From an uncultured Candidatus Saccharibacteria bacterium (GTDB lineage Bacteria; Patescibacteriota; Minisyncoccia; Phycocordibacterales; UBA2100), in contig CAYNQE010000001.1 in assembly GCA_964399345.1 (NCBI GenBank), positions 17,060-81,059 of the forward strand: DNA of 64,000 bases. The letters run 5' to 3'. Positions 4,546 through 55,726 of this stretch are shown piece by piece. Within the stretch, counting starts at the first letter, position 1. The number at the start of each line of letters is the position of its first letter. The notes under the pieces are model-generated. The model was given only the letters and a program-made list of their open reading frames with translations. It was not told the DNA's origin and ran no database searches. Both the position numbers and the translations under genes were made by a program.

Positions 4546-5262
4546 ATGTCTGACTTTACTCTAGAGCTAGAAGGTTTCCGAGGCCCACTTGGGCTTCTTC
4601 TTGATTTAATTGAAAGAGAGAAGCTTCGTATAAATGACGTGTCTCTTGCTAAAGTTTCTGACGACTACATTGAATACATTCAAGACAGGGAAGCAATTCC
4701 ACTTTCGCAAACCTCTCAGTTTGTTGTTGTAGCCTCTACTTTGCTGTTAATAAAGTCTCGCTCACTACTTCCGTCTCTTGAACTCTCAGAAGAGGAAGAC
4801 GAAGATATTAGAGATTTAGAAAATCGTCTAAAGATGTATAAGAAAGTAAGAAGAGCGACTAAGTTAATCAAAAACCGTTGGGGCAAGAAATTGTTTCTTC
4901 CAACATTTAAGCCAACGGAAATAAAATTCTCACCAGGGGGTGATGTAAAAAAAGAAAACTTGCACATTTCTTTAAAAGGCGCACTGGATGCTCTTCCTTC
5001 CTTTGACAAGGCACCTACTGCAAAGGTTAGTAAAGAAGTCTCTCTGGAGGAGATGATTGAAGATCTAACAGAGAGAATACGCTCAGCTACAACTTCCTCT
5101 TTTAATAAGATTACTGAGAAAGCTAGTAAAATAGAGGGTATTGTTAACTTTTTAGCTTTACTTGAACTAGTAAAGCGTGGGACACTAAGTGTGACCCAGG
5201 AGAAACATTTTTCTGACATTGATTTTGATAACGAGGAAGTAGACACACCACATTATGGATAG
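4546..5262 (+). CDS. scpA: Segregation and condensation protein A (kleisin)
   Basis: N-terminal LELEGFRGPLGLLLDLIEREKL, characteristic of ScpA. It is immediately followed by scpB with a 4-nt overlap. Confidence 0.75.
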   Translation: MSDFTLELEGFRGPLGLLLDLIEREKLRINDVSLAKVSDDYIEYIQDREAIPLSQTSQFVVVASTLLLIKSRSLLPSLELSEEEDEDIRDLENRLKMYKKVRRATKLIKNRWGKKLFLPTFKPTEIKFSPGGDVKKENLHISLKGALDALPSFDKAPTAKVSKEVSLEEMIEDLTERIRSATTSSFNKITEKASKIEGIVNFLALLELVKRGTLSVTQEKHFSDIDFDNEEVDTPHYG

Positions 5263-5776
5263 AAACGCACAAAAACTACAAGCACTACTGTATTCAAACG
5301 GGGGCGAGATGAAAAAGGCAGAAATAGCTTCGCTTATGGAATTAACCAAGGAAGAGGTGGAGGTTGCAATTGAAAATCTAAAATCCCACCCTCAGGGTAT
5401 TGAAATATTAGAAACTCTTGAACACGTGTCACTACGGACCTCTCAAAAATATTCCGAGTTTATTACACAAACACAAAAGAAGGACAGTGAGAAAGATGTT
5501 GGTACTGCAGGACTAGAGGTTCTTTCCATAGTCTTATACAAAAATGGAGCCTCTCGAAGTGAAATAGATTACATACGTGGAGTTAATTCTAGTGCAACGC
5601 TTAGACAGTTAATTCTACGAGGACTGCTCGAAAGATCCAAGAGCGAATCTGACTCCCGAGCCTGGGAATACAAAGTGACACCCGAATTATTAAGTCATGT
5701 AGGGGTTTCTATGGTACACGAACTCCCAGAGTATGAGACAATGAAAGAATCTCTCCAAAAAAATTATGACGACTAA
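5255..5776 (+). CDS. scpB: Segregation and condensation protein B
   Basis: Winged-helix ScpB-like N-terminus (QALLYSNGGEMKKAEIASLMEL) and operon position after scpA. Confidence 0.7.
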   Translation: MDRNAQKLQALLYSNGGEMKKAEIASLMELTKEEVEVAIENLKSHPQGIEILETLEHVSLRTSQKYSEFITQTQKKDSEKDVGTAGLEVLSIVLYKNGASRSEIDYIRGVNSSATLRQLILRGLLERSKSESDSRAWEYKVTPELLSHVGVSMVHELPEYETMKESLQKNYDD

Positions 5777-38961: not shown

Positions 38962-39477
38962 ATGACTCGACGATCTTGGTCCGAGAAGGACCTAGAAACT
39001 GCAGTTAATGCCTCAACTAGCGTAAGGCAGGTGCTGAGAAAGCTTAACTTAAGAGAAGCGGGTGGTAATTATGTTCAAATCCGTAAATATCTAGATGAGT
39101 TGAATATAGACTCCTCGCACTTTAGAGGCAGGGGTTGGGCGCGAGGCCTTAAAGGTATTGGTTCCCCCAGGATTCCTCTAAAGGAAATATTGGTTAAAAA
39201 TAGTTCTTTCCAAAGTCACAAATTGAAAAATCGCTTATTTAAGGAAAACATAAAGTTCAGGGCTTGCGAAATGTGTAAGTGGGCTGAAATTTCCGAGGAT
39301 GGTCGTCAACCTTTGGAGCTTGACCATATCAACGGGGACAGGCATGATAATCGTCTACCTAACCTAAGAATTTTGTGCCCAAATTGTCATAGCTTGCAGT
39401 CAACGCATCGGGGTAGAAATATTGGTAGATGCCGAGGTGGTGGAGTTGGTAGACACGAGAGGCTTAAAACCTCTTGA
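38962..39477 (+). CDS. HNH homing endonuclease
   Basis: CEMCKW...LELDHINGDRHDNRLPNLRILCPNCHS is a canonical HNH-Zn motif. The last 47 nt and the stop codon lie inside tRNA-Leu(UAA). Confidence 0.8.
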   Translation: MTRRSWSEKDLETAVNASTSVRQVLRKLNLREAGGNYVQIRKYLDELNIDSSHFRGRGWARGLKGIGSPRIPLKEILVKNSSFQSHKLKNRLFKENIKFRACEMCKWAEISEDGRQPLELDHINGDRHDNRLPNLRILCPNCHSLQSTHRGRNIGRCRGGGVGRHERLKTS

Positions 39478-39516
39478 CCGTTTTTGGTCGCGCGGGTTCG
39501 AATCCCGCCCTCGGCA
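39431..39516 (+). tRNA. tRNA-Leu (anticodon TAA)
   Basis: Acceptor GCCGAGG/CCTCGGC. Anticodon stem AGAGG/CCTCT with loop CTTAAAA. Long variable arm. T-loop GGTTCGAATCC. Confidence 0.8.
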
Positions 39517-39763
39517 CCGAAACACAATTAAGCGGTCTTTGACCGACTTCTGGACTGTCCCCGATATACTGTACACACCCAGCTCCGCTTAGAGAGTTGG
39601 CGCAGAATTGCCACGTGCTCTCGCCGTGGGGAGTCCGCCACCGCAGTGGCGGACAATGGACAGCACGCGGAGCGTTCCGCTTTGTTAAAGTTAATCGCTC
39701 CGCGATTGTTTCTCAAAAAAAGTTCGAGCAAATGATATAATCTCCGCACCAAAATAAAACCTG

Positions 39764-39935: not shown

Positions 39936-40571
39936 ATGGCTAAGGCACACAAGAAGATTAACATGGCCTGGTCTCCAAAATTATCTTACGCAATAGGAAT
40001 AATAGCCTCTGATGGTAATTTGTCCCCTGATAGAAGGCATATAAACATAACATCAAAAGATCTCTCTATTGTTGAAAGTTGTAAAAGCGCACTAGAGATA
40101 GATAACAAAATAGGAAGGAAGAGCCGCGAACGTTCTTCCGAAAAGGAATATTATGTCCTTCAATTTGGAAGTGTATTGTTTTATCAATTCTTGCTTGACC
40201 TGGGACTTCACCCAAACAAATCAAAAACACTGAAAAAAGTAGACGTTCCTAATGAATATTTCTCACATTTTTTACGAGGACTTATGAATGGTGATGGAAC
40301 AATAACATCCTTTAAGCATCCTTATAGCAAACTACTTCAAACAAGAATATCTTTGGCATCTGCAAGTCCGGATTTTCTAATCTGGATACACGGTAAAATA
40401 CGAAAACTTGTAAATATTGAAGGTGGTTGGATATACAATGCAAAAAAGAAAAATATCTCCATGCTTACATTTGGCAAAAGAGACACTATACTAGTCTGCA
40501 AATTTATGTATAATAAATCGGCTACATACAAGCTTATGCGTAAATATGATTGCATAGAAAAGTATCTTTAA
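39936..40571 (+). CDS. Double-motif (monomeric) LAGLIDADG homing endonuclease
   Basis: Two LAGLIDADG helices, YAIGIIASDGNL and HFLRGLMNGDGTI, about 100 aa apart. 211 aa. It fills the tRNA-Lys/tRNA-Leu spacer exactly. Confidence 0.8.
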   Translation: MAKAHKKINMAWSPKLSYAIGIIASDGNLSPDRRHINITSKDLSIVESCKSALEIDNKIGRKSRERSSEKEYYVLQFGSVLFYQFLLDLGLHPNKSKTLKKVDVPNEYFSHFLRGLMNGDGTITSFKHPYSKLLQTRISLASASPDFLIWIHGKIRKLVNIEGGWIYNAKKKNISMLTFGKRDTILVCKFMYNKSATYKLMRKYDCIEKYL

Positions 40572-40574
40572 GTT

Positions 40575-40659
40575 GGGCGAGTGGTGAAATTGGTATACAC
40601 GCGTGGTTTAGGACCACGTTCCGCAAGGAGTGGAGGTTCAAGTCCTCTCTCGCCCACCA
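40575..40659 (+). tRNA. tRNA-Leu (anticodon TAG), CCA encoded
   Basis: Acceptor GGGCGAG/CTCGCCC. Anticodon stem CGTGG/CCACG with loop TTTAGGA. Long variable arm. Ends ACCA. Confidence 0.8.
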
Positions 40660-40667
40660 GAATAGAA

Positions 40668-40812
40668 CTTGTCCGCCTACGCACTGGACGTGTCGCCTCG
40701 TTCCACTCAGCAACCTAAATACAAACTCATTCCCTTTCAACTTTTTACGACTCCCCCAGACCCCCACCGCAGGGAAAAGGAAAGGTGAGGAAATGGTTTG
40801 TTTTTTGGTTTA
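40668..40812 (+). repeat. Repeat A: about 145 bp left-flank copy of an inverted repeat pair bracketing the DGR. Begins 9 nt after tRNA-Leu(UAG).
   Basis: The reverse complement of 43553-43690 aligns base-for-base with this segment at about 80% identity, for example cgcctacgca[c/t]tggac...gttccactc...acccccaccgc[a/g]ggg...ggaaatg. Confidence 0.7.
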
Positions 40813-40827
40813 CTACTACGTAGTTAA

Positions 40828-41826
40828 CTACTTATTTAAATGTGTAGAAAGGGAGCGCGTGTACTCTTTTAACTCATAAGCATCTCCATGTCCGAGTAGT
40901 CCCAAGTATGATTGTAAAGTCCATTGTTTGCCATCAACTTCACTAATTCTCTTTAACATTCTTCGTTTTGTTACACTGCGTAGTACACGGTGAGTCGGAA
41001 AGTGAACCCAACCTAGAAAGTCAACTCCTGAGGAGAATGTTTCAATGGAAGTCTTTCGTTTATGCAATTTAAGTTGTAACTCTTCTTTTAGAAACGCACC
41101 TATGCACCGATGTATTTCCAACAACTCTTGTCTGTCTCGCGAAAGAATCACAAAATCGTCAGCATAACGAATATAATATTTAGCTTTCAGTTTGTGTTTA
41201 ACAAACTTATCAAGCTCATTCATATATACATTAACAAAGAGTTGCGAAGTGAGGTTACCAAGTGGTAATCCTTTTCTTTTCTCACCAGAGCTGAAACTCC
41301 CAACAATCTCTTCTAAAAGCGAAATTATATCTTTGTCAGAAATGTGTTTCTTCAAAATATTCATTAAGATAGAGTGGCCAATGGAGGCAAAGAATTTTCG
41401 TATATCGCTTTTAAATACCCAAACTGTTTTCGTGTTGTTCTTTGAAACTTTGTTTACAAAACTGCGAAGCCGATCAATTGCTCTGTGTGTCCCTTTGTTG
41501 TTTCTGCAAGAATATGAGTCAGCGATGAACGTATTGTCAAAATATGGATAGAGTTGTCTATATATTGCATGGTGAAATAGTCTGTCTCGCACGCTTGCCT
41601 TATGAATATTTCTTGGTTTGGGATCGGAAATGTTAAAAGCTTCGTATCTACCGTGCTTGTATGTTTTGTTTTTTAAATCTTGGTGTAATGAAAGTATGTT
41701 ATCCATTAGATGTAATTGGAACTCCTGCACGTCCTTACGTTTTCGTTTACCGTTTAAGAATTCCTTCCACGCACCGAGGAGATTTTCTACACAGATGATA
41801 TCATTGTAGGTATGAACAAATTTCAT
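40828..41826 (-). CDS. DGR-type reverse transcriptase
   Basis: RT motifs KHGRYEAFNISDPKPRNIHKASVRDRLFHHAI (domains 1-2) and YIRYADDFVIL (YADD catalytic box). 332 aa with no maturase or endonuclease domain. A TR/VR pair lies adjacent. Confidence 0.85.
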   Translation of the reverse strand: MKFVHTYNDIICVENLLGAWKEFLNGKRKRKDVQEFQLHLMDNILSLHQDLKNKTYKHGRYEAFNISDPKPRNIHKASVRDRLFHHAIYRQLYPYFDNTFIADSYSCRNNKGTHRAIDRLRSFVNKVSKNNTKTVWVFKSDIRKFFASIGHSILMNILKKHISDKDIISLLEEIVGSFSSGEKRKGLPLGNLTSQLFVNVYMNELDKFVKHKLKAKYYIRYADDFVILSRDRQELLEIHRCIGAFLKEELQLKLHKRKTSIETFSSGVDFLGWVHFPTHRVLRSVTKRRMLKRISEVDGKQWTLQSYLGLLGHGDAYELKEYTRSLSTHLNK

Positions 41827-41890
41827 CCTCAGAATCCTACCCCCCCCCTCAGCGATTTCGCAATCAAAGCTAATTCCCGTTATATTAAAA

Positions 41891-42223
41891 CTGAAAGATG
41901 TATATAGACTATGGCAGGAATATCTTGTTCATTTTCCGAAACAAAATCGCTATACCTTAGGGAGCAAAATTGATGAAGTATTCTTGATTGCTATAGAGTA
42001 CTGTTTTCTTGCCAGCTACGCCCCAAGGGATACTAAAATTATTCATCTCAACCGCTGTATTTCGCGAGTTGACTTGCTCAAACTTCTTTTGCAACTAGCG
42101 TGGGAAATACAAGCTTTAGATACTAAAAAATATACAGTACTTAGTGAGCAACTACAGGAAGTTGGAAGAATGCTTGGTGGGTGGAGAAAGGGGTTGGAAG
42201 TTAAAAACTCCCCACAAAAGTGA
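41891..42223 (+). CDS. avd: Avd-like accessory variability determinant (four-helix-bundle family). It is on the strand opposite the RT. The start is uncertain, with no in-frame ATG. A TTG at 41984 or CTG at 41891 could serve.
   Basis: In-frame translation ...KDVYRLWQEYLVHFPKQNRYTLGSKIDEVFLIAIEY...LLKLLLQLAWEIQALDTKKYTVLSEQLQEVGRMLGGWRKGL matches Avd/'23S rRNA intervening sequence protein' family features (WQ...FPK.E.Y.LGSQI and ...EV.KML.GL). Confidence 0.5.
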   Translation: MKDVYRLWQEYLVHFPKQNRYTLGSKIDEVFLIAIEYCFLASYAPRDTKIIHLNRCISRVDLLKLLLQLAWEIQALDTKKYTVLSEQLQEVGRMLGGWRKGLEVKNSPQK

Positions 42224-42235
42224 GGAGAAATATGT

Positions 42236-42351
42236 GCAGTAGCTAAAGACACGGTTGCCAGCATTCCAGACATTGCCGTCAAGCGGATTCGCATTGAAGT
42301 TCCACTTGGAATCGTCGGAGTTCCAGTTCGCGTTGACCACGAAGCCTTCAC
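42236..42351 (-). repeat. DGR template repeat (TR), 116 bp
   Basis: Collinear with VR 42686-42801 and no indels. 13 of 14 internal mismatches lie at TR positions that are A on the minus (coding-sense) strand. Confidence 0.8.
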
Positions 42352-42607
42352 TCGTAATGTGACCAATACCATCTGTACCACCACCCATTGAATATTCTCT
42401 GGGCTGTATATTATTCAGGACGTTATAAATCCTTCAGTATCAATCACCAACTGCATTTATTTTTTCAGAGATACAACAGATATACTCTTGGAGAAACCAT
42501 AGTCTAACTCCAACTCTGACATTTGTTTTACCTAAAGCTTCTTGCCCGAGCCATAACCAGAACATAATAAAAACTTCGTTTTGCAGTATAGCAAAATCCC
42601 TTATGTG

Positions 42608-42648
42608 TAAAAATAGCCCCTCAAACGCTTGAAGCGTCAAAGGGGCTA
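42608..42648 (-). terminator. Rho-independent terminator for the DGR target transcript
   Basis: Nested hairpin agcccct...acgcttgaagcgt...aggggct followed by an ATTTTTA run on the minus strand. Confidence 0.5.
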
Positions 42649-42682: not shown

Positions 42683-43288
42683 TCAGCAGTTGCTAAAGAC
42701 ACGGCTGCCAGCAGGCCAGACAAAGCCGTCAAGCGGACTCGCACTGAAGTACCACTTGGAACCGTCGGAGTCCCAGATCGCGATGAACACGAAGCCTCCA
42801 CGGGGCTTGTTCACGTCAGGAACGAAGAAGAACAAGTTAGCAGCATAGTTTTCAACCAACAGGTCGCCTTCCGCTTCGCCACTTGGCTGTAGAGCAGTTA
42901 AACTGTCCATATGTGCCAGTAGAACCCTGATATCGCGATATATGGATTCAGGATATTCCTTCATAATATCCCACTCTCTCGTTTGAGTTTCCAGTTTGCG
43001 ATAGTGAGTCGCGATTTCAGGAACTGAAGCAATCGGTTTCGCCACCGGCAAAATTAGACTTGCCATATTCGGCGACGACCAACGTCCTTCTTTGCGAGTC
43101 TTGAAAGCGGTTTTTGGCACAAACTTTTTGGTTCGTGCCGGAATGACTGCCCCTTTCTTGAGTTCGCCCAGCTGAGAGACGGCCACAATTTTTGTCCGCC
43201 CAGCAAGCAATGCGTCAATACCCACCTCTCCACCGTGGATATTCCAGACTGCCTGTATTCGGTCGGGAGTTTTGTTAGCTTTTGACAT
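42683..43288 (-). CDS. DGR target (variable) protein, 201 aa, with a C-terminal CLec-like variable region and no signal peptide
   Basis: Carries the VR. C-terminal W..DGSKW.F.......DG.VW.AGSRV pattern. GC content is visibly higher than the flanking genes. Confidence 0.7.
   Translation of the reverse strand: MSKANKTPDRIQAVWNIHGGEVGIDALLAGRTKIVAVSQLGELKKGAVIPARTKKFVPKTAFKTRKEGRWSSPNMASLILPVAKPIASVPEIATHYRKLETQTREWDIMKEYPESIYRDIRVLLAHMDSLTALQPSGEAEGDLLVENYAANLFFFVPDVNKPRGGFVFIAIWDSDGSKWYFSASPLDGFVWPAGSRVFSNC
42686..42801 (-). repeat. DGR variable repeat (VR) at the 3' end of the target gene
   Basis: Same alignment as listed for the TR. The VR encodes the C-terminal ...FVFIAIWDSDGSKWYFSASPLDGFVWPAGSRVFSNC. 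The TR in the same frame reads Asn-rich ...VVNANWNSDDSKWNFNANPLDGNVWNAGNRVFSYC. Confidence 0.8.
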
Positions 43289-43552
43289 TGTCTTCTCCTT
43301 TATCCGTATAGGATATTAAGGTACACCTTTGCCCGTATAGAACAAAAGTACTAGACCGTGTGGTCTTAGCTACAAACAACCGAAATTTCGGTAACTTGTA
43401 GCTAGGACCAACAAATATTATGTAAATGAACTTCATGCATATTATACCACACTTCGTGGAGTATGCAAGACTAACTTCGCAAATCACGAAAAACAGAGAG
43501 CTCGTACGCTTTGCGTATAAGAGAACTGTTTTGTAGTGACGCAGCGAACCCG

Positions 43553-43690
43553 AAAAACAAACACATTTCCTTCTTTCTTCTTTCCCCGCGGTGGGGGTAT
43601 GGGGGAAGCCGTAAAAAATTGAAAGGAAATGTTTTGTTTTTTGGTCGCCGAGTGGAACAAGGCGGTAAGTCCAATGCGTAGGCGTATGTT
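43553..43690 (-). repeat. Repeat B: right-flank inverted copy of repeat A. It contains an internal 20-bp-arm palindrome (43559-43580 and 43625-43644).
   Basis: Same alignment as listed for repeat A. Arms cccgaaaaacaaacacatttcc and ggaaatgttttgttttttgg are near-perfect reverse complements. Confidence 0.7.
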
Positions 43691-43806
43691 TAGAGATGCC
43701 ACAGATTCGGCGCGTGAGATTAGTGTTTGCTTTGAAAATAGGTTCTACCTTGGTGAAATAGACGCACAAATAAGTAAAAACGCACCTTACAGGTGCGTTT
43801 TTACTT

Positions 43807-44040
43807 TTAGATTCCAAACGTACTTTTTATAATACCTAGTATTCCAAAGACGGACGCCATAATGAAGATCCCTAATACTCCATATATCATATGCTGAACC
43901 CCTTCAGATCTTTTATCAGGACTATTCATGTTCAGCAAAAAGATCACGAGACCCCAGGTGAACATAAAAACTCCGGCTGCGAATATAACTAGTATTAAAG
44001 GATTAATTATTGAATCAACAATTTTATCCATTACCTCCAT
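43807..44040 (-). CDS. Small two-TM secreted protein, T4SS-pilin-like. Tandem paralog 1 of 5.
   Basis: Two hydrophobic helices. Shares a conserved C-terminal stretch with the other four tandem paralogs (compare 44043-44387 and 44481-44798). Confidence 0.4.
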   Translation of the reverse strand: MEVMDKIVDSIINPLILVIFAAGVFMFTWGLVIFLLNMNSPDKRSEGVQHMIYGVLGIFIMASVFGILGIIKSTFGI

Positions 44041-44042
44041 GC

Positions 44043-44387
44043 CTATCTCCTAATTTCCTTAGGAACAATTGGGGCTGAGCCCGTTACCTCAAATGTCTCT
44101 TGTAGTATTCGAATAATTCCCCAGATACTTACCATAACGAATATCGCTATAATTCCCATAAACATTTGGTTTATGGCCTTTCCTTTTGCCTCTGAATCGT
44201 CAGACTTTAATATATAGCTAGCCAATCCCCAAAAGAAATATAAAACGGCAAGAGCCAAAATTATTGGGATGATTCCGTTTATAATACCGCTAATTGTGTT
44301 TAATGTATTTCCAAGAGTAACGGCGGATGCTGTTGTAGGCATCATTACTGCAACTCCGGTTAATATAAGTGCGTTTATTTTTTGCAT
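44043..44387 (-). CDS. Small two-TM secreted protein, T4SS-pilin-like. Tandem paralog 2 of 5.
   Basis: Signal peptide then two TM helices. Conserved ...VMVSIWGIIRILQ tail shared with paralog 3. Confidence 0.45.
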   Translation of the reverse strand: MQKINALILTGVAVMMPTTASAVTLGNTLNTISGIINGIIPIILALAVLYFFWGLASYILKSDDSEAKGKAINQMFMGIIAIFVMVSIWGIIRILQETFEVTGSAPIVPKEIRR

Positions 44388-44480
44388 TGTATGTTAATAA
44401 AACTAATAAAATACGTTTGAATGTACTTACCTATATGGTAGCACCGTTACTAGTAGATTTAATATATTTTGGGGATATCG

Positions 44481-44798
44481 TTAAAGACCACCAAAAAGAG
44501 TCGACTGAAGTATTCGGATGATTCCCCATATACTTACCATAACGAAAAGAATAATAACCCCCCAAACCATAGAATCCTTGAGCTCTTTTTTCTTCTCCGC
44601 AGAGTCTGCATCGTAATTAAATAGTCCTGAGGCTACTCTCCAGAAGAAGAACGCAAGAGCAAGGCTAAATAATGCAGTGGTTGCTAGATTAAGCATGTCC
44701 ACTGCCCAATACGAAAGTTCCTTAAATGTTTTTGCAGCAGCAAATGAGACCTCAAAACTTAAAAGGAAAGTTGCTACGATAAAAAAAAGATTTTTCAT
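44481..44798 (-). CDS. Small two-TM secreted protein, T4SS-pilin-like. Tandem paralog 3 of 5.
   Basis: Signal peptide then two TM helices. ...VMVSIWGIIRILQ tail. Confidence 0.45.
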   Translation of the reverse strand: MKNLFFIVATFLLSFEVSFAAAKTFKELSYWAVDMLNLATTALFSLALAFFFWRVASGLFNYDADSAEKKKELKDSMVWGVIILFVMVSIWGIIRILQSTLFGGL

Positions 44799-44799
44799 A

Positions 44800-45159
44800 T
44801 TAAACAGCTAGAATTGGATCAATCGTTCCCTTAATTAAAGTAGCTAAGGCAAACGCGCCAAGAAGTAATGCCACTCCTATAACTACCCATAAGAAGTTAC
44901 TTTTTGCCTCCCCAAGTTTATCTGAGTTTCCTCGTGCCATTACAAACAAAAATCCTGAATATACTATGAACAATACTGCTACTGGAAATAGTATTTGTGT
45001 AACCACATTCAAAAATGCTTCTGTGAAGCCAGCTACGGTATCTAGGCCGTTGCATAATGGGTTTTGAAACCCTTTTCCCCCTCCTCTGGAACAAGCGGCA
45101 GAAACAACTCCTGGAACGGACAAAAGAAACATAGATGTAGAGAACAATATTTTTTTCAT
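44800..45159 (-). CDS. Small two-TM secreted protein, T4SS-pilin-like. Tandem paralog 4 of 5.
   Basis: Signal peptide, Cys-containing segment, two TM helices. Confidence 0.4.
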   Translation of the reverse strand: MKKILFSTSMFLLSVPGVVSAACSRGGGKGFQNPLCNGLDTVAGFTEAFLNVVTQILFPVAVLFIVYSGFLFVMARGNSDKLGEAKSNFLWVVIGVALLLGAFALATLIKGTIDPILAV

Positions 45160-45171
45160 ATAAATATAATA

Positions 45172-45543
45172 TCACTTTTTATACAAAGCGTATAAAAGGA
45201 ATGCGGATATAACTACTAAAAGTGCTGACGAGGTTAATCCACTGAGCGTGTTGCCAACAAGTTGTGCTATCGCCCAAAGAGCTAAGAATACGGTTCCTCC
45301 TATTAACGTGGTGAGTGCCATTGATTTTGCTTTCGTAAGACCTGCGGGATTGCCTTGTGCTGAGACAAACAAAAACCCTGTCCACACTATTAACACTATT
45401 AATGCAGGAGTACCCACATAGATAACTCCATTAACGAAAGCTTCTAAGATTTCTCTTACAAATCTAAGGAGTAAAGGGTTTTCAAAAGTAGCAGCACTTA
45501 CTATCCCCGGTAGAAAAAGAACGGCTAAATATATTAATCTCAT
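45172..45543 (-). CDS. Small two-TM secreted protein, T4SS-pilin-like. Tandem paralog 5 of 5.
   Basis: Signal peptide and two TM helices, similar to paralog 4. Confidence 0.4.
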   Translation of the reverse strand: MRLIYLAVLFLPGIVSAATFENPLLLRFVREILEAFVNGVIYVGTPALIVLIVWTGFLFVSAQGNPAGLTKAKSMALTTLIGGTVFLALWAIAQLVGNTLSGLTSSALLVVISAFLLYALYKK

Positions 45544-46847
45544 TTAATTAAATTATTTAACTCCTGACTTGCTCTTCCAATAGAGTCAGACAACTTAGTA
45601 GCACCTGAGGTAACATCACCAACCATTCTTCTAAAGATCCTCGTTGTTTCTTCAGAATTTGGATCAAACCAAGCACGACTTAGTAGTGCTGCGTTGCGAA
45701 AGATTAAAAGTAGAGGATCATCCGGGGTTTTGCTTAACAGATCTCTTCTTGGCGACGCCGTTGAATTTATCTGTGCAAAAACCTCTGACGCCTCTCTTCC
45801 TGACATAAATTTAGCCATCTCCTCGCCCCCATAGGAGTTAACTGCAACTTTAGGTACCGCAAGGGCGTGTAGCTTGCCGTAGGTCATTACGCGCTTCTGC
45901 TCCCCTGTTCGTATTTGTGGTAGAGGTGCCACATCAAAATTCAAATGTGCATTCTTGGCTTGAATGGTTTTAACATCGCTGGCGTAACCTATGTAGATTG
46001 CCAATTTGCCTTGAGCAAAAGAATCCAGTGAGCTTGGAAGGGATCTATTCCAGGTATATACAGTTTTTACTGGGTTCGCAAATTCTGTAAAGAATCGTAA
46101 TGCGGTTTGAGTAGGGTTTATTTCGTTTGCTCCCTCTCTTACAGTCACATCAACATAGAGTCCTGACTCGTTGAAGCCAACTATGTCCCCTCCTGCCTGC
46201 ATTATTAGAGTGGAGATTATGTCCTTGGCGTGAGTTACGTTATCAAACTCTCCAAATGCAACTGTGGCAATTTCAATATTATTTGAATTATCTCTTTTGG
46301 TTATCCTCTCGGATAACAGAAAGAATTCATCCCAAAAACTTGGTGGTTGCGAGAAGCCGTTTTGTGCAAATATATCCCTGTTCCAATACATAACAAGTGA
46401 GTCCACAGAAAAAGGTAACCCTCGTATACCCTCACTACTTAAAAACATTTCTGCCTCTTCTATATATGTATCCTTATATTCCCTCTCAGGTATATCTTCA
46501 TAACTAAACTTAGAAACTTTATCCCAATGCCTTACAAGATTTGATTGATCTAGGATAAAAAGGTCAGGACCACTGCCGTCTGCAAGGGCTTCAGCCAACC
46601 TAGACTGGAAAACATCTGCCGGAATTTCCTCATAAAATACATTCTCTACCCTATTATCAATATCGTTTAGGGTTTGTAGATAGGTTTCCATAAGGTTTCT
46701 GTCAAAACTTCCCCACATTAAAACTTCTCCGATTGGCCTTTCTCCTTTTCCACCGGAAAATGTGGCGAAGGCAAAAACTGCCGCAATTATAAAAAAGGCG
46801 AATACTCCGAATACAATTGTTTGAAATGGGCTTTTTTTCTCTGGCAT
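45540..46847 (-). CDS. Extracellular solute-binding protein (ABC transporter family-1-like)
   Basis: N-terminal TM/signal anchor. Periplasmic binding-protein-like fold features (GSGPDLFILDQSNL, WDEFF). Confidence 0.6.
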   Translation of the reverse strand: MPEKKSPFQTIVFGVFAFFIIAAVFAFATFSGGKGERPIGEVLMWGSFDRNLMETYLQTLNDIDNRVENVFYEEIPADVFQSRLAEALADGSGPDLFILDQSNLVRHWDKVSKFSYEDIPEREYKDTYIEEAEMFLSSEGIRGLPFSVDSLVMYWNRDIFAQNGFSQPPSFWDEFFLLSERITKRDNSNNIEIATVAFGEFDNVTHAKDIISTLIMQAGGDIVGFNESGLYVDVTVREGANEINPTQTALRFFTEFANPVKTVYTWNRSLPSSLDSFAQGKLAIYIGYASDVKTIQAKNAHLNFDVAPLPQIRTGEQKRVMTYGKLHALAVPKVAVNSYGGEEMAKFMSGREASEVFAQINSTASPRRDLLSKTPDDPLLLIFRNAALLSRAWFDPNSEETTRIFRRMVGDVTSGATKLSDSIGRASQELNNLIK

Positions 46848-55236: not shown

Positions 55237-55281
55237 TCTTCCAAGCGCACACCTCTCGGGGTGTGCGCTTTGATTTTAAGG

Positions 55282-55680
55282 GGTTGACAGGTCTCTAACA
55301 CAATGATGTCTTACTTGAGTCTAATGCGATTCGCGCATTAGACTTTGAAACGACAACGGAGGAATCCATGTCAAAATTGTTCCCGGCCCCACGTGGGGCA
55401 CCCGTAAAAAGTTATGTTTAGTGCATCTCTTTTTTTCCACTTCTGCCGGACGGCCGCCGGTGCGATTCAACAGAATCGCGGCGCCTGCCCTGAGGATGGC
55501 AATGGGTTTTAATCGAAAGATATAAACCCAAGCCGTTTTAACGGATTTGCACAAGCAGTCCGTTACGACCTAAAACCATAAGGAGGACTGACCCCATGAG
55601 GAGAATAAACTCATCTTGGCGGCCATCAGCCGCCGGTGACAATTTCGCCCCGCATTCGTGCGGGGCGCTCTTTTTTATAT
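55282..55680 (+). ncRNA. Candidate structured noncoding RNA of unassigned family. GC-rich, ends in an intrinsic terminator (55645-55676).
   Basis: About 400 nt with no plausible ORF and multiple GC-rich hairpins (aatgcgattcgcgcatt, ggccccacgtggggc, gcgattcaacagaatcgc). Terminator cgccccgca-ttcg-tgcggggcg followed by TCTTTTTT. Confidence 0.3.
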
Positions 55681-55726
55681 ACACCCCTAGCACTCTAAGC
55701 CTACTTATGGTAAAGTTTCGCCACAT

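Follow-up and report, generated by a model that had tools for sequence, protein, structure and literature searches.

Where does the variable protein of a diversity-generating retroelement (DGR) act when it carries no recognizable signal for export? This question was raised by the open reading frame (ORF) 42683..43288(-) in a 64-kb stretch of DNA (in the following the window) from an uncultured Candidatus Saccharibacteria bacterium (contig CAYNQE010000001.1). An original prediction had described the product as a DGR target without signal peptide or transmembrane (TM) segment, had read its high GC content as the mark of a horizontally acquired cassette, and had offered two locations, inside the cell or outside after export by a non-classical route. 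The reading which we favor for the whole locus, with a probability of about 0.6, is that of a variable protein of a DGR of the Candidate Phyla Radiation (CPR) with a C-type-lectin-like core, which would serve as an intracellular binder without export leader, with a GC content typical for its family and with a pilin gene array as a chance neighbor.

The ORF belongs to an intact DGR of the CPR type, in which it encodes the variable protein. Read along the minus strand, the target gene with its variable repeat (VR) is followed by a 9-bp hairpin, a terminator-like hairpin, a spacer, the template repeat (TR), a hairpin with T-run, the accessory gene avd on the opposite strand and the reverse transcriptase (RT) gene (Table 1). 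Comparing TR and VR, an identity of 87% was observed, with 13 of the 15 mismatches located at adenines of the TR. All nine AAY codons of the TR, encoding Asn, were found recoded in the VR, to I, I, D, Y, S, S, F, P and S. If every TR adenine were recoded, approximately 2.6e15 protein variants would be possible. Only one VR was counted in the window. The RT matched RVT_1 (9.8e-26) and phrog_1423 (7e-110), and the nearest RTs sit in other DGR loci. Thus, a DGR-type RT is located beside a TR/VR pair with adenine-focused differences and AAY codons, and Avd is present as well. The latter was identified via PF22296 (bAvd, 5.6e-14) and the PHROG “Avd protein of DGR,” while its score against the NCBIfam model NF033474 (DivGenRetAVD; 1e-18, 67.6 bits) was below the curated cutoff of 80. 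No ATG, GTG or TTG precedes position 41984 in avd, yet homology to Avd begins at approximately 41900; the gene may use a non-canonical start or may be N-terminally truncated. Its reversed orientation was kept in approximately 30 related loci.

The secondary structure elements of the locus are in agreement with this assignment. The 3′ end of the VR resembles an initiation of mutagenic homing (IMH) site and is followed, 5 nt after the stop codon, by the GC-rich 9-bp hairpin in the position expected for a DGR target-site hairpin. The 91-nt stretch holding this hairpin and the terminator folded with a z-score of -6.4. One T-to-A difference, close to the 3′ end of the repeat, might reflect an IMH/IMH* difference. 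The hairpin directly after the TR (42203-42227) may represent a bidirectional terminator, and the TR RNA may end there rather than continue through antisense avd into the RT gene. The TR also lies within a pseudo-ORF, 42152..42388(-), which is carried in public annotations as a 78-aa “protein” (P0062) and is probably not a gene.

The target protein begins with MSKANKTPDRIQAVWNIHGG (201 aa, ORF 42683..43288(-)). Its start is the ATG at 43288, and an in-frame stop is located just 9 codons upstream with no start codon in between. Consequently, an N-terminal extension cannot add a signal peptide, and no corrected upstream start is possible. Export calls were based on hydrophobicity heuristics with exported and cytoplasmic controls from the window. 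For the whole protein the maximum 19-residue Kyte-Doolittle mean was 1.31, and the top 10-residue window of the first 40 aa scored 1.41. Similar N-terminal values were obtained for the cytoplasmic controls gyrA (1.19), IF2 (1.43) and RT (1.77). The exported controls of the same locus, five pilins (2.2-3.2) and a solute-binding protein (3.1), scored far above the target. Neither a twin-arginine (RR) motif nor a TM anchor was found in the target protein, and a lipobox is absent because the sole Cys is the last residue. By these heuristics and controls the target carries neither a Sec/Tat signal peptide nor a lipoprotein signal, in line with the original prediction of no N-terminal signal.

In order to place this protein, its relatives were considered. 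A first genome-contig scan with the single target protein gave no match, and a word-index homology search returned only the target itself. Using phmmer with the target, 121 representative clusters were found at E < 1e-3, with proteins of approximately 200 aa each and many full-length matches. A profile search yielded unnamed or “hypothetical protein” entries from Patescibacteria without Pfam domains. For the target and 30 relatives no match was obtained in Pfam, NCBIfam, PHROGs, PADLOC and a PDB sequence profile search. The Pfam families FGE-sulfatase (FGE, formylglycine-generating enzyme) and DUF1566 did not match the target, and neither was found among 30 members at E up to 1. Scanning species-representative genomes, 85 related stretches were confirmed, of which 80 loci were kept (L002-L084). 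They derive mostly from metagenome-assembled genomes (MAGs) labeled Patescibacteria/CPR, and some are labeled Bdellovibrionales, Opitutaceae or Gammaproteobacteria. The family is a sequence-orphan restricted to Patescibacteria, with members of approximately 200 aa, and it is cellular, not phage-borne.

Each genomic locus contains one family ORF, in most cases of roughly 165-260 aa. A TR was detected 300-350 nt downstream of it in 33 loci, followed in most of them by the reversed avd and the RT gene, and TR adenines took 83% of all mismatches in these 33 TR/VR pairs. Approximately 50 loci showed no RT or TR within 8 kb of the family ORF. In two MAGs the VR of such a paralogue on one contig was compared with the TR on another: 17 of 19 mismatches were found at A for the TR of L014 versus the VR of L015, and 23 of 29 for the TR of L047 versus the VR of L045. 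This adenine-specific match of remote VRs to the single TR of the MAG identifies the remote paralogues as trans targets of one DGR in these two MAGs. The TR-sharing paralogues carry differing N-terminal leaders. Clustering of all neighbors within 4 kb left RT and avd as the sole recurrent partners of the family.

A confident AlphaFold2 model of the target was calculated from 32 family sequences (predicted local distance difference test, pLDDT, 85.9; predicted template modeling score, pTM, 0.78). It shows residues 41-201, including the VR, as one domain, and residues 1-40 as a flexible leader of short helices with low confidence. The order of elements in the model is beta92-99, alpha105-111, alpha120-133, beta151-155, beta166-173, beta178-185 and beta196-199. 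An uncharacterized N-terminal domain of residues 1-150, as originally postulated, is not seen in this single-domain model, in which only the first ~40 residues form an appendage. Structural matches were weak, with C-type-lectin folds as the best of them, and comprised invasin, intimin, SUMF2 (an FGE paralogue, 125 aligned residues), PorK, EgtB/OvoA, PvdO and many animal C-type-lectin-like domains. Searching the model with Foldseek against PDB and BFVD gave no match below E = 0.1. On the basis of these weak similarities, residues 41-201 probably form a compact, divergent, C-type-lectin-like domain. This fits the expectation of Roux et al. (2021; PMC8144416) that the uncharacterized VR-bearing domains of CPR targets are new C-type lectin (CLec) variants.

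In the model, two neighboring C-terminal strands carry the residues derived from AAY codons at every other position (169/171/173 and 180/182/184), and the next loop holds the remaining three (189/192/195). These positions represent the window's own pattern only, as the C-terminal alignment of the 33 TR/VR pairs was blurred by unequal tail lengths. The residues between the variable ones, A170, W172, W179, F181 and A183, are the same in TR and VR, with W172 and W179 nearly invariant throughout the family; W172, W179, W191 and R196 are kept as its scaffold. Since the variable residues alternate on strands of the predicted secondary structure, they would lie on one exposed face and would form a programmable binding surface.

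A second characteristic of the family is found at the N-terminus. The leader of the window protein (43169-43288, residues 1-40) contains a motif of ~35 aa, MxKxNxTxDRIQAVWNxxGGExGxDxLLxG, which is also found at the start of small proteins whose C-terminal parts differ from the family core (P0039, P0059, P0121). A profile search with just the leader yielded two fragments. The family core bears at least 37 unrelated leader types. They are uniformly short and hydrophilic and probably form helices, and several contain an FLxRxNPF/W-like motif. Leaders also differ between paralogues of the same genome. For the N-terminal hydrophobicity score, a family median of 1.27 was obtained, and a clear N-terminal TM helix was found in 1 of 226 members (P0035). 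In this protein the basic residues come after the TM helix. By the positive-inside rule, this single sequence hints weakly at a cytoplasmic variable domain.

These observations bear on the location of the protein. The mainstream view of CPR targets would make it a surface or extracellular adhesin for host attachment, exported non-classically, with its leader read by a CPR-specific secretion or pilus system. In other cellular lineages, most DGR targets are binders that are secreted or anchored in the membrane (PMC8144416), and a review assigns CPR targets to host attachment (PMC10221324). Leaders which are conserved yet swappable could be export tags, and the gene adjoins a five-gene array of pilins of type IV secretion system (T4SS) type. 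However, 225 of the 226 family members lack a clear N-terminal TM anchor or signal-like stretch, no conserved secretion or pilus neighbor was found in 83 loci, and the hint from P0035 points to the cytoplasm. We therefore regard a surface adhesin as rather unlikely and, more generally, export by an unknown route as doubtful, while for action inside the cell we see somewhat better than even odds. Of the original prediction, the absence of a classical export signal stood. Its pair of possible locations is still the correct alternative, though not a new one, as Roux et al. (2021; PMC8144416) pose the same question for CPR DGR targets in general.

The pilin array deserves separate consideration, as it had been proposed as partner or conduit of the variable protein. 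A pilus tip adhesin or a pilus cargo would be conceivable forms of such a partnership. The pilin operon, 43807..45543(-), lies immediately upstream of the target on the same strand; it had been placed downstream, but higher coordinates are upstream in the direction of transcription of the target. Three of the five pilins scored above the gathering threshold of PF18895 (26.6 bits) and the other two reached 21-22 bits. All five possess hydrophobic N-termini, and one additionally matched TrbC/VirB2 and a pilin-like NCBIfam model of integrative and conjugative elements (ICE). Nevertheless, no pilin-like ORF was detected near family members in 82 other loci, where RT and avd are the only recurrent neighbors. 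Twenty other small ORFs with two TM segments, located within 3 kb of family members, belong to unrelated Pfam families. Moreover, the operon is set apart from the target by the hairpin of the repeat with its T-run and by a separate promoter-like element. We consider a partnership very unlikely and infer that the pilin array is a chance neighbor.

A third possible location is the virion. A receptor-binding protein of a phage or prophage needs no signal peptide, since virions assemble in the cytoplasm, and phage DGR targets such as Mtd also lack one. One family member was indeed found on an IMG/VR contig. This origin is extremely unlikely for the window protein: its surroundings are housekeeping in nature (gyrA, IF2, tRNAs, solute-binding protein), 1 viral stands against 85 genomic matches, the target has no PHROG family and its model no viral structure match, and recurrent phage genes beside family members were not found, with the viral copy standing alone. 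Context, PHROG and structure searches agree that the homologues are not phage receptor-binding proteins. The sole relative on a viral contig, L085 (IMGVR_UViG_3300048581_000019, 4771-5277; 168 aa), is located beside a GroEL-like gene. It matches the family profile to position 157 only, its VR-equivalent region is unmatched, and no RT or avd is nearby.

Several points weigh against an intracellular binder generated by an active DGR. The predicted cytoplasmic location of the target comes from hydrophobicity heuristics with local controls, and knowledge of protein export in CPR bacteria is scant. In the abstract of Paul and colleagues from 2017, the function assumed for CPR DGRs is said to be host attachment, which implies a surface location. 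A docking role of the leader, as outlined below, is pure conjecture. Two metagenome contig scans, with the protein and with a DNA pattern of the repeat core, gave no matches and therefore no VR variants of the target from other samples; the identical target protein was found on four contigs. Hence, current activity of the DGR at this locus is unproven.

The GC content of the target gene required an explanation of its own. It amounts to 0.503 compared to 0.401 for the window, the highest value of 67 non-overlapping ORFs (z = +4.0), with a GC content at third codon positions (GC3) of 0.525 (z = +3.4 among the same ORFs). The flanking repeats are GC-richer as well (0.49 and 0.47). Both deviations had been noted before, although against a genome GC of roughly 38%, which does not agree with the measured window. 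They had been taken to point to a horizontally acquired cassette. In its full form, this explanation would assume a foreign DGR cassette, recently acquired and inserted beside a tRNA-Leu gene, with a ~140-nt inverted repeat as its ends. In favor of this proposal, the target exceeds the genome by 10 GC points, where Wu et al. (2018; PMC5758913) take a deviation of ≥ 5% as a sign of transfer. The repeat copies, 82% identical, frame the cassette exactly, beside tRNA-Leu(tag).

Other parts of the cassette do not share the deviation. Neither the RT gene (0.365) nor avd (0.386) exceeds the GC content of the genome. Across 80 loci of different species, the part of the target outside the VR exceeded background ORFs by 0.079 in GC and by 0.20 in GC3, in 94% of the loci. 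The VR part exceeded background by 0.25 in GC3, and RT and avd were found ~0.05 and ~0.04 GC below background. The GC3 excess was alike in members with and without a nearby DGR and flat along the gene, the flanks 250 nt away being at or below locus GC. In addition, target GC follows host GC (r = 0.61, slope 0.44). The GC excess is a family trait limited to the coding sequence and not a sign of recent import, because it is confined to the target, extends over the whole family and has sharp gene borders. Three candidate causes were also considered. Adenine avoidance was rejected, as third-position T (T3) was depleted more than third-position A (A3); both were depleted in the family, with C3 most enriched. 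A conversion gradient centered on the VR was rejected because of the flat GC3 profile. Expression-linked codon bias is unlikely, with the lowest GC3 of the window found in a likely ribosomal-protein gene (L9-like, the one checked).

The flanking repeat itself allows for a second explanation. On both sides, the copy directly follows a gene that lies outside the cassette but is oriented toward it, namely the plus-strand tRNA-Leu gene at one end and the minus-strand pilin operon at the other. Each copy contains a long hairpin with T-run. Judged by this arrangement, an insulating terminator element would fit at least as well as the ends of a mobile element. No further copies were found in the window or in a metagenome contig scan. 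An Rfam search of the cassette including the flanking repeat gave no family except tRNA-Leu. In 23 other family DGR loci tested, the cassette was neither bracketed by a similar inverted repeat nor immediately adjoined by a tRNA gene. Taken together, recent acquisition of the cassette appears improbable.

Table 1. Coordinates of the DGR locus and of its direct neighbors in the window.
Feature	Position	Strand	Remarks
DGR reverse transcriptase gene	40828..41826	(-)	332 aa; YADD and GNLTSQ motifs
avd accessory gene	41888..42226	(+)	Strand opposite to target, TR and RT
Hairpin, 8-bp, with T-run	42203..42227	(-)	Directly after TR, over the 3′ end of avd
TR	42236..42351	(-)	29 adenines in 119 nt; 9 AAY codons; 450 bp downstream of VR
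Intrinsic-terminator-like hairpin with U-run	42607..42648	(-)	Putative end of the target transcript
Hairpin, 9-bp stem, 5-nt loop	42656..42678	(-)	Begins 5 nt past the target stop
VR	42686..42801	(-)	Last 38 codons of target, residues 164-201
Target (variable protein) gene	42683..43288	(-)	201 aa, 22.3 kDa, pI 9.3; no signal peptide/TM
Shine-Dalgarno AAGGAG	43295..43300	(-)	6 bases before the target ATG; read from sequence
Hairpin, 25-nt arms, nearly perfect	43356..43414	(-)	Putative 5′ leader of target; z = -6.0
TGnTATAAT extended -10 element	~43436-43444	(-)	Just upstream of the 43356..43414 hairpin; promoter inferred from sequence
~140-nt repeat, left copy	40674..40811	(+)	82% identical, inverted; follows tRNA-Leu(tag) 40575-40659
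~140-nt repeat, right copy	43547..43684	(-)	Follows the pilin operon
Pilin array, five small genes	43807..45543	(-)	PF18895 T4SS_pilin; upstream of target, same strand
Solute-binding protein gene	45540-46847	-	Upstream of the pilin array in transcription

A regulatory function is conceivable for the nearly perfect hairpin in the putative 5′ leader of the target gene. A 180-aa ORF, 43275-43817(-), crosses the right flanking repeat; it is listed as a gene in public annotations and is probably not one. Directly beside the DGR on its other side, genes of the homing endonuclease type are interspersed among clustered tRNA genes (Cys, Leu, Lys, Leu). An HNH-endonuclease-like ORF (38962-39477) overlaps tRNA-Leu(taa) (39431-39518), and a LAGLIDADG ORF (39936-40571) ends 4 nt before tRNA-Leu(tag) at 40575. 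Farther away, between cold-shock-domain-like and S21-like ORFs, an ORF-free region of ~490 nt (55240-55726) has a GC content of ~0.49 versus 0.40. It gave no Rfam match at E up to 1 and may encode an unannotated structured RNA.

Combining these results, the following mechanism can be outlined for the favored reading. Through adenine-specific mutagenic retrohoming, the TR, located 450 bp downstream, has overwritten the last 38 codons of the target. The protein would be made as a soluble, leaderless (i.e., export-signal-free) cytoplasmic protein and would most likely serve as a variable ligand binder, either intracellularly or along the inner side of the envelope. The N-terminal leader might dock the variable core to a partner and thereby decide where the binder is used. 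Going one step further, the family might constitute a cytoplasmic antibody-like repertoire, in which several paralogues with one hypervariable domain and different “address” tags are re-randomized by a single TR/RT. The GC3 excess of ~+0.2 over ~80 species would then mark a constraint on these genes, such as mRNA/cDNA handling or biased gene conversion among paralogues. We put this forward as a tentative idea which is more probably wrong than right by a wide margin. If true, such a repertoire would let genome-reduced CPR cells recognize molecules, for instance those of phages or hosts, intracellularly and in a programmable manner.

CPR bacteria are unusually rich in DGRs, and the literature leaves open whether their targets are really non-membrane-bound. 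On its own, the locus leaves existing knowledge unchanged, and the inferences from GC content to transfer and from neighboring pilins to partners are wrong here. It represents a clean and complete example, in which a single target with its fully recoded VR and the intact genes for RT and avd lie in a housekeeping context. Experimental handles are provided by the single-domain model with its predicted variable face, by the exchangeable leaders as bait and by one TR serving several tagged paralogues. The GC3 excess restricted to targets could help to find such proteins and needs explaining.

Among the closest known systems are the variable proteins with C-type-lectin fold Mtd (Bordetella phage), TvpA (Treponema) and AvpA (nanoarchaeal). 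Predicted cytoplasmic DGR targets fused to STAND/AAA NTPases were reportedly described by Vallota-Eastman and colleagues in 2020 for cyanobacteria and other multicellular bacteria. Targets of this type, which correspond to categories b7/b10/g1 of Wu et al. (2018; PMC5758913), likewise lack an export signal, and a role in intracellular sensing or binding was proposed for them. However, they are large multidomain signaling proteins, whereas the window target is a 22-kDa single domain with a 40-aa leader and without NTPase.

The closest resemblance is to the CPR/DPANN DGR variable proteins (Paul et al., 2017; the CPR set of Wu et al., 2018, PMC5758913; clade 2 of Roux et al., 2021, PMC8144416). 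The host group is Patescibacteria, as here. The layout is likewise the same, namely architecture B3, TR-(avd)-RT, found in 90% of the CPR set (PMC5758913); the window shows this core order with reversed avd, as do approximately 30 related loci. In both cases a small target bears its VR at the C-terminus and lacks TM segment, signal peptide and recognizable domain. According to Roux et al. (2021; PMC8144416) CPR targets are typically without these three features, although whether they are genuinely non-membrane-bound “remains to be established.” The CPR VR classes UVR1-6 of Wu et al. (2018; PMC5758913) were of unknown fold and without functional matches. The absence of an export leader is thus an already published class property of CPR DGR targets, and the window locus joins that class as a further member without essential difference. 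What is added to this picture is a confident model with a weak C-type-lectin signal and, new at the family level, at least 37 modular leader types on one core, one TR shared by several paralogues as trans targets, and a GC3 excess confined to the gene.

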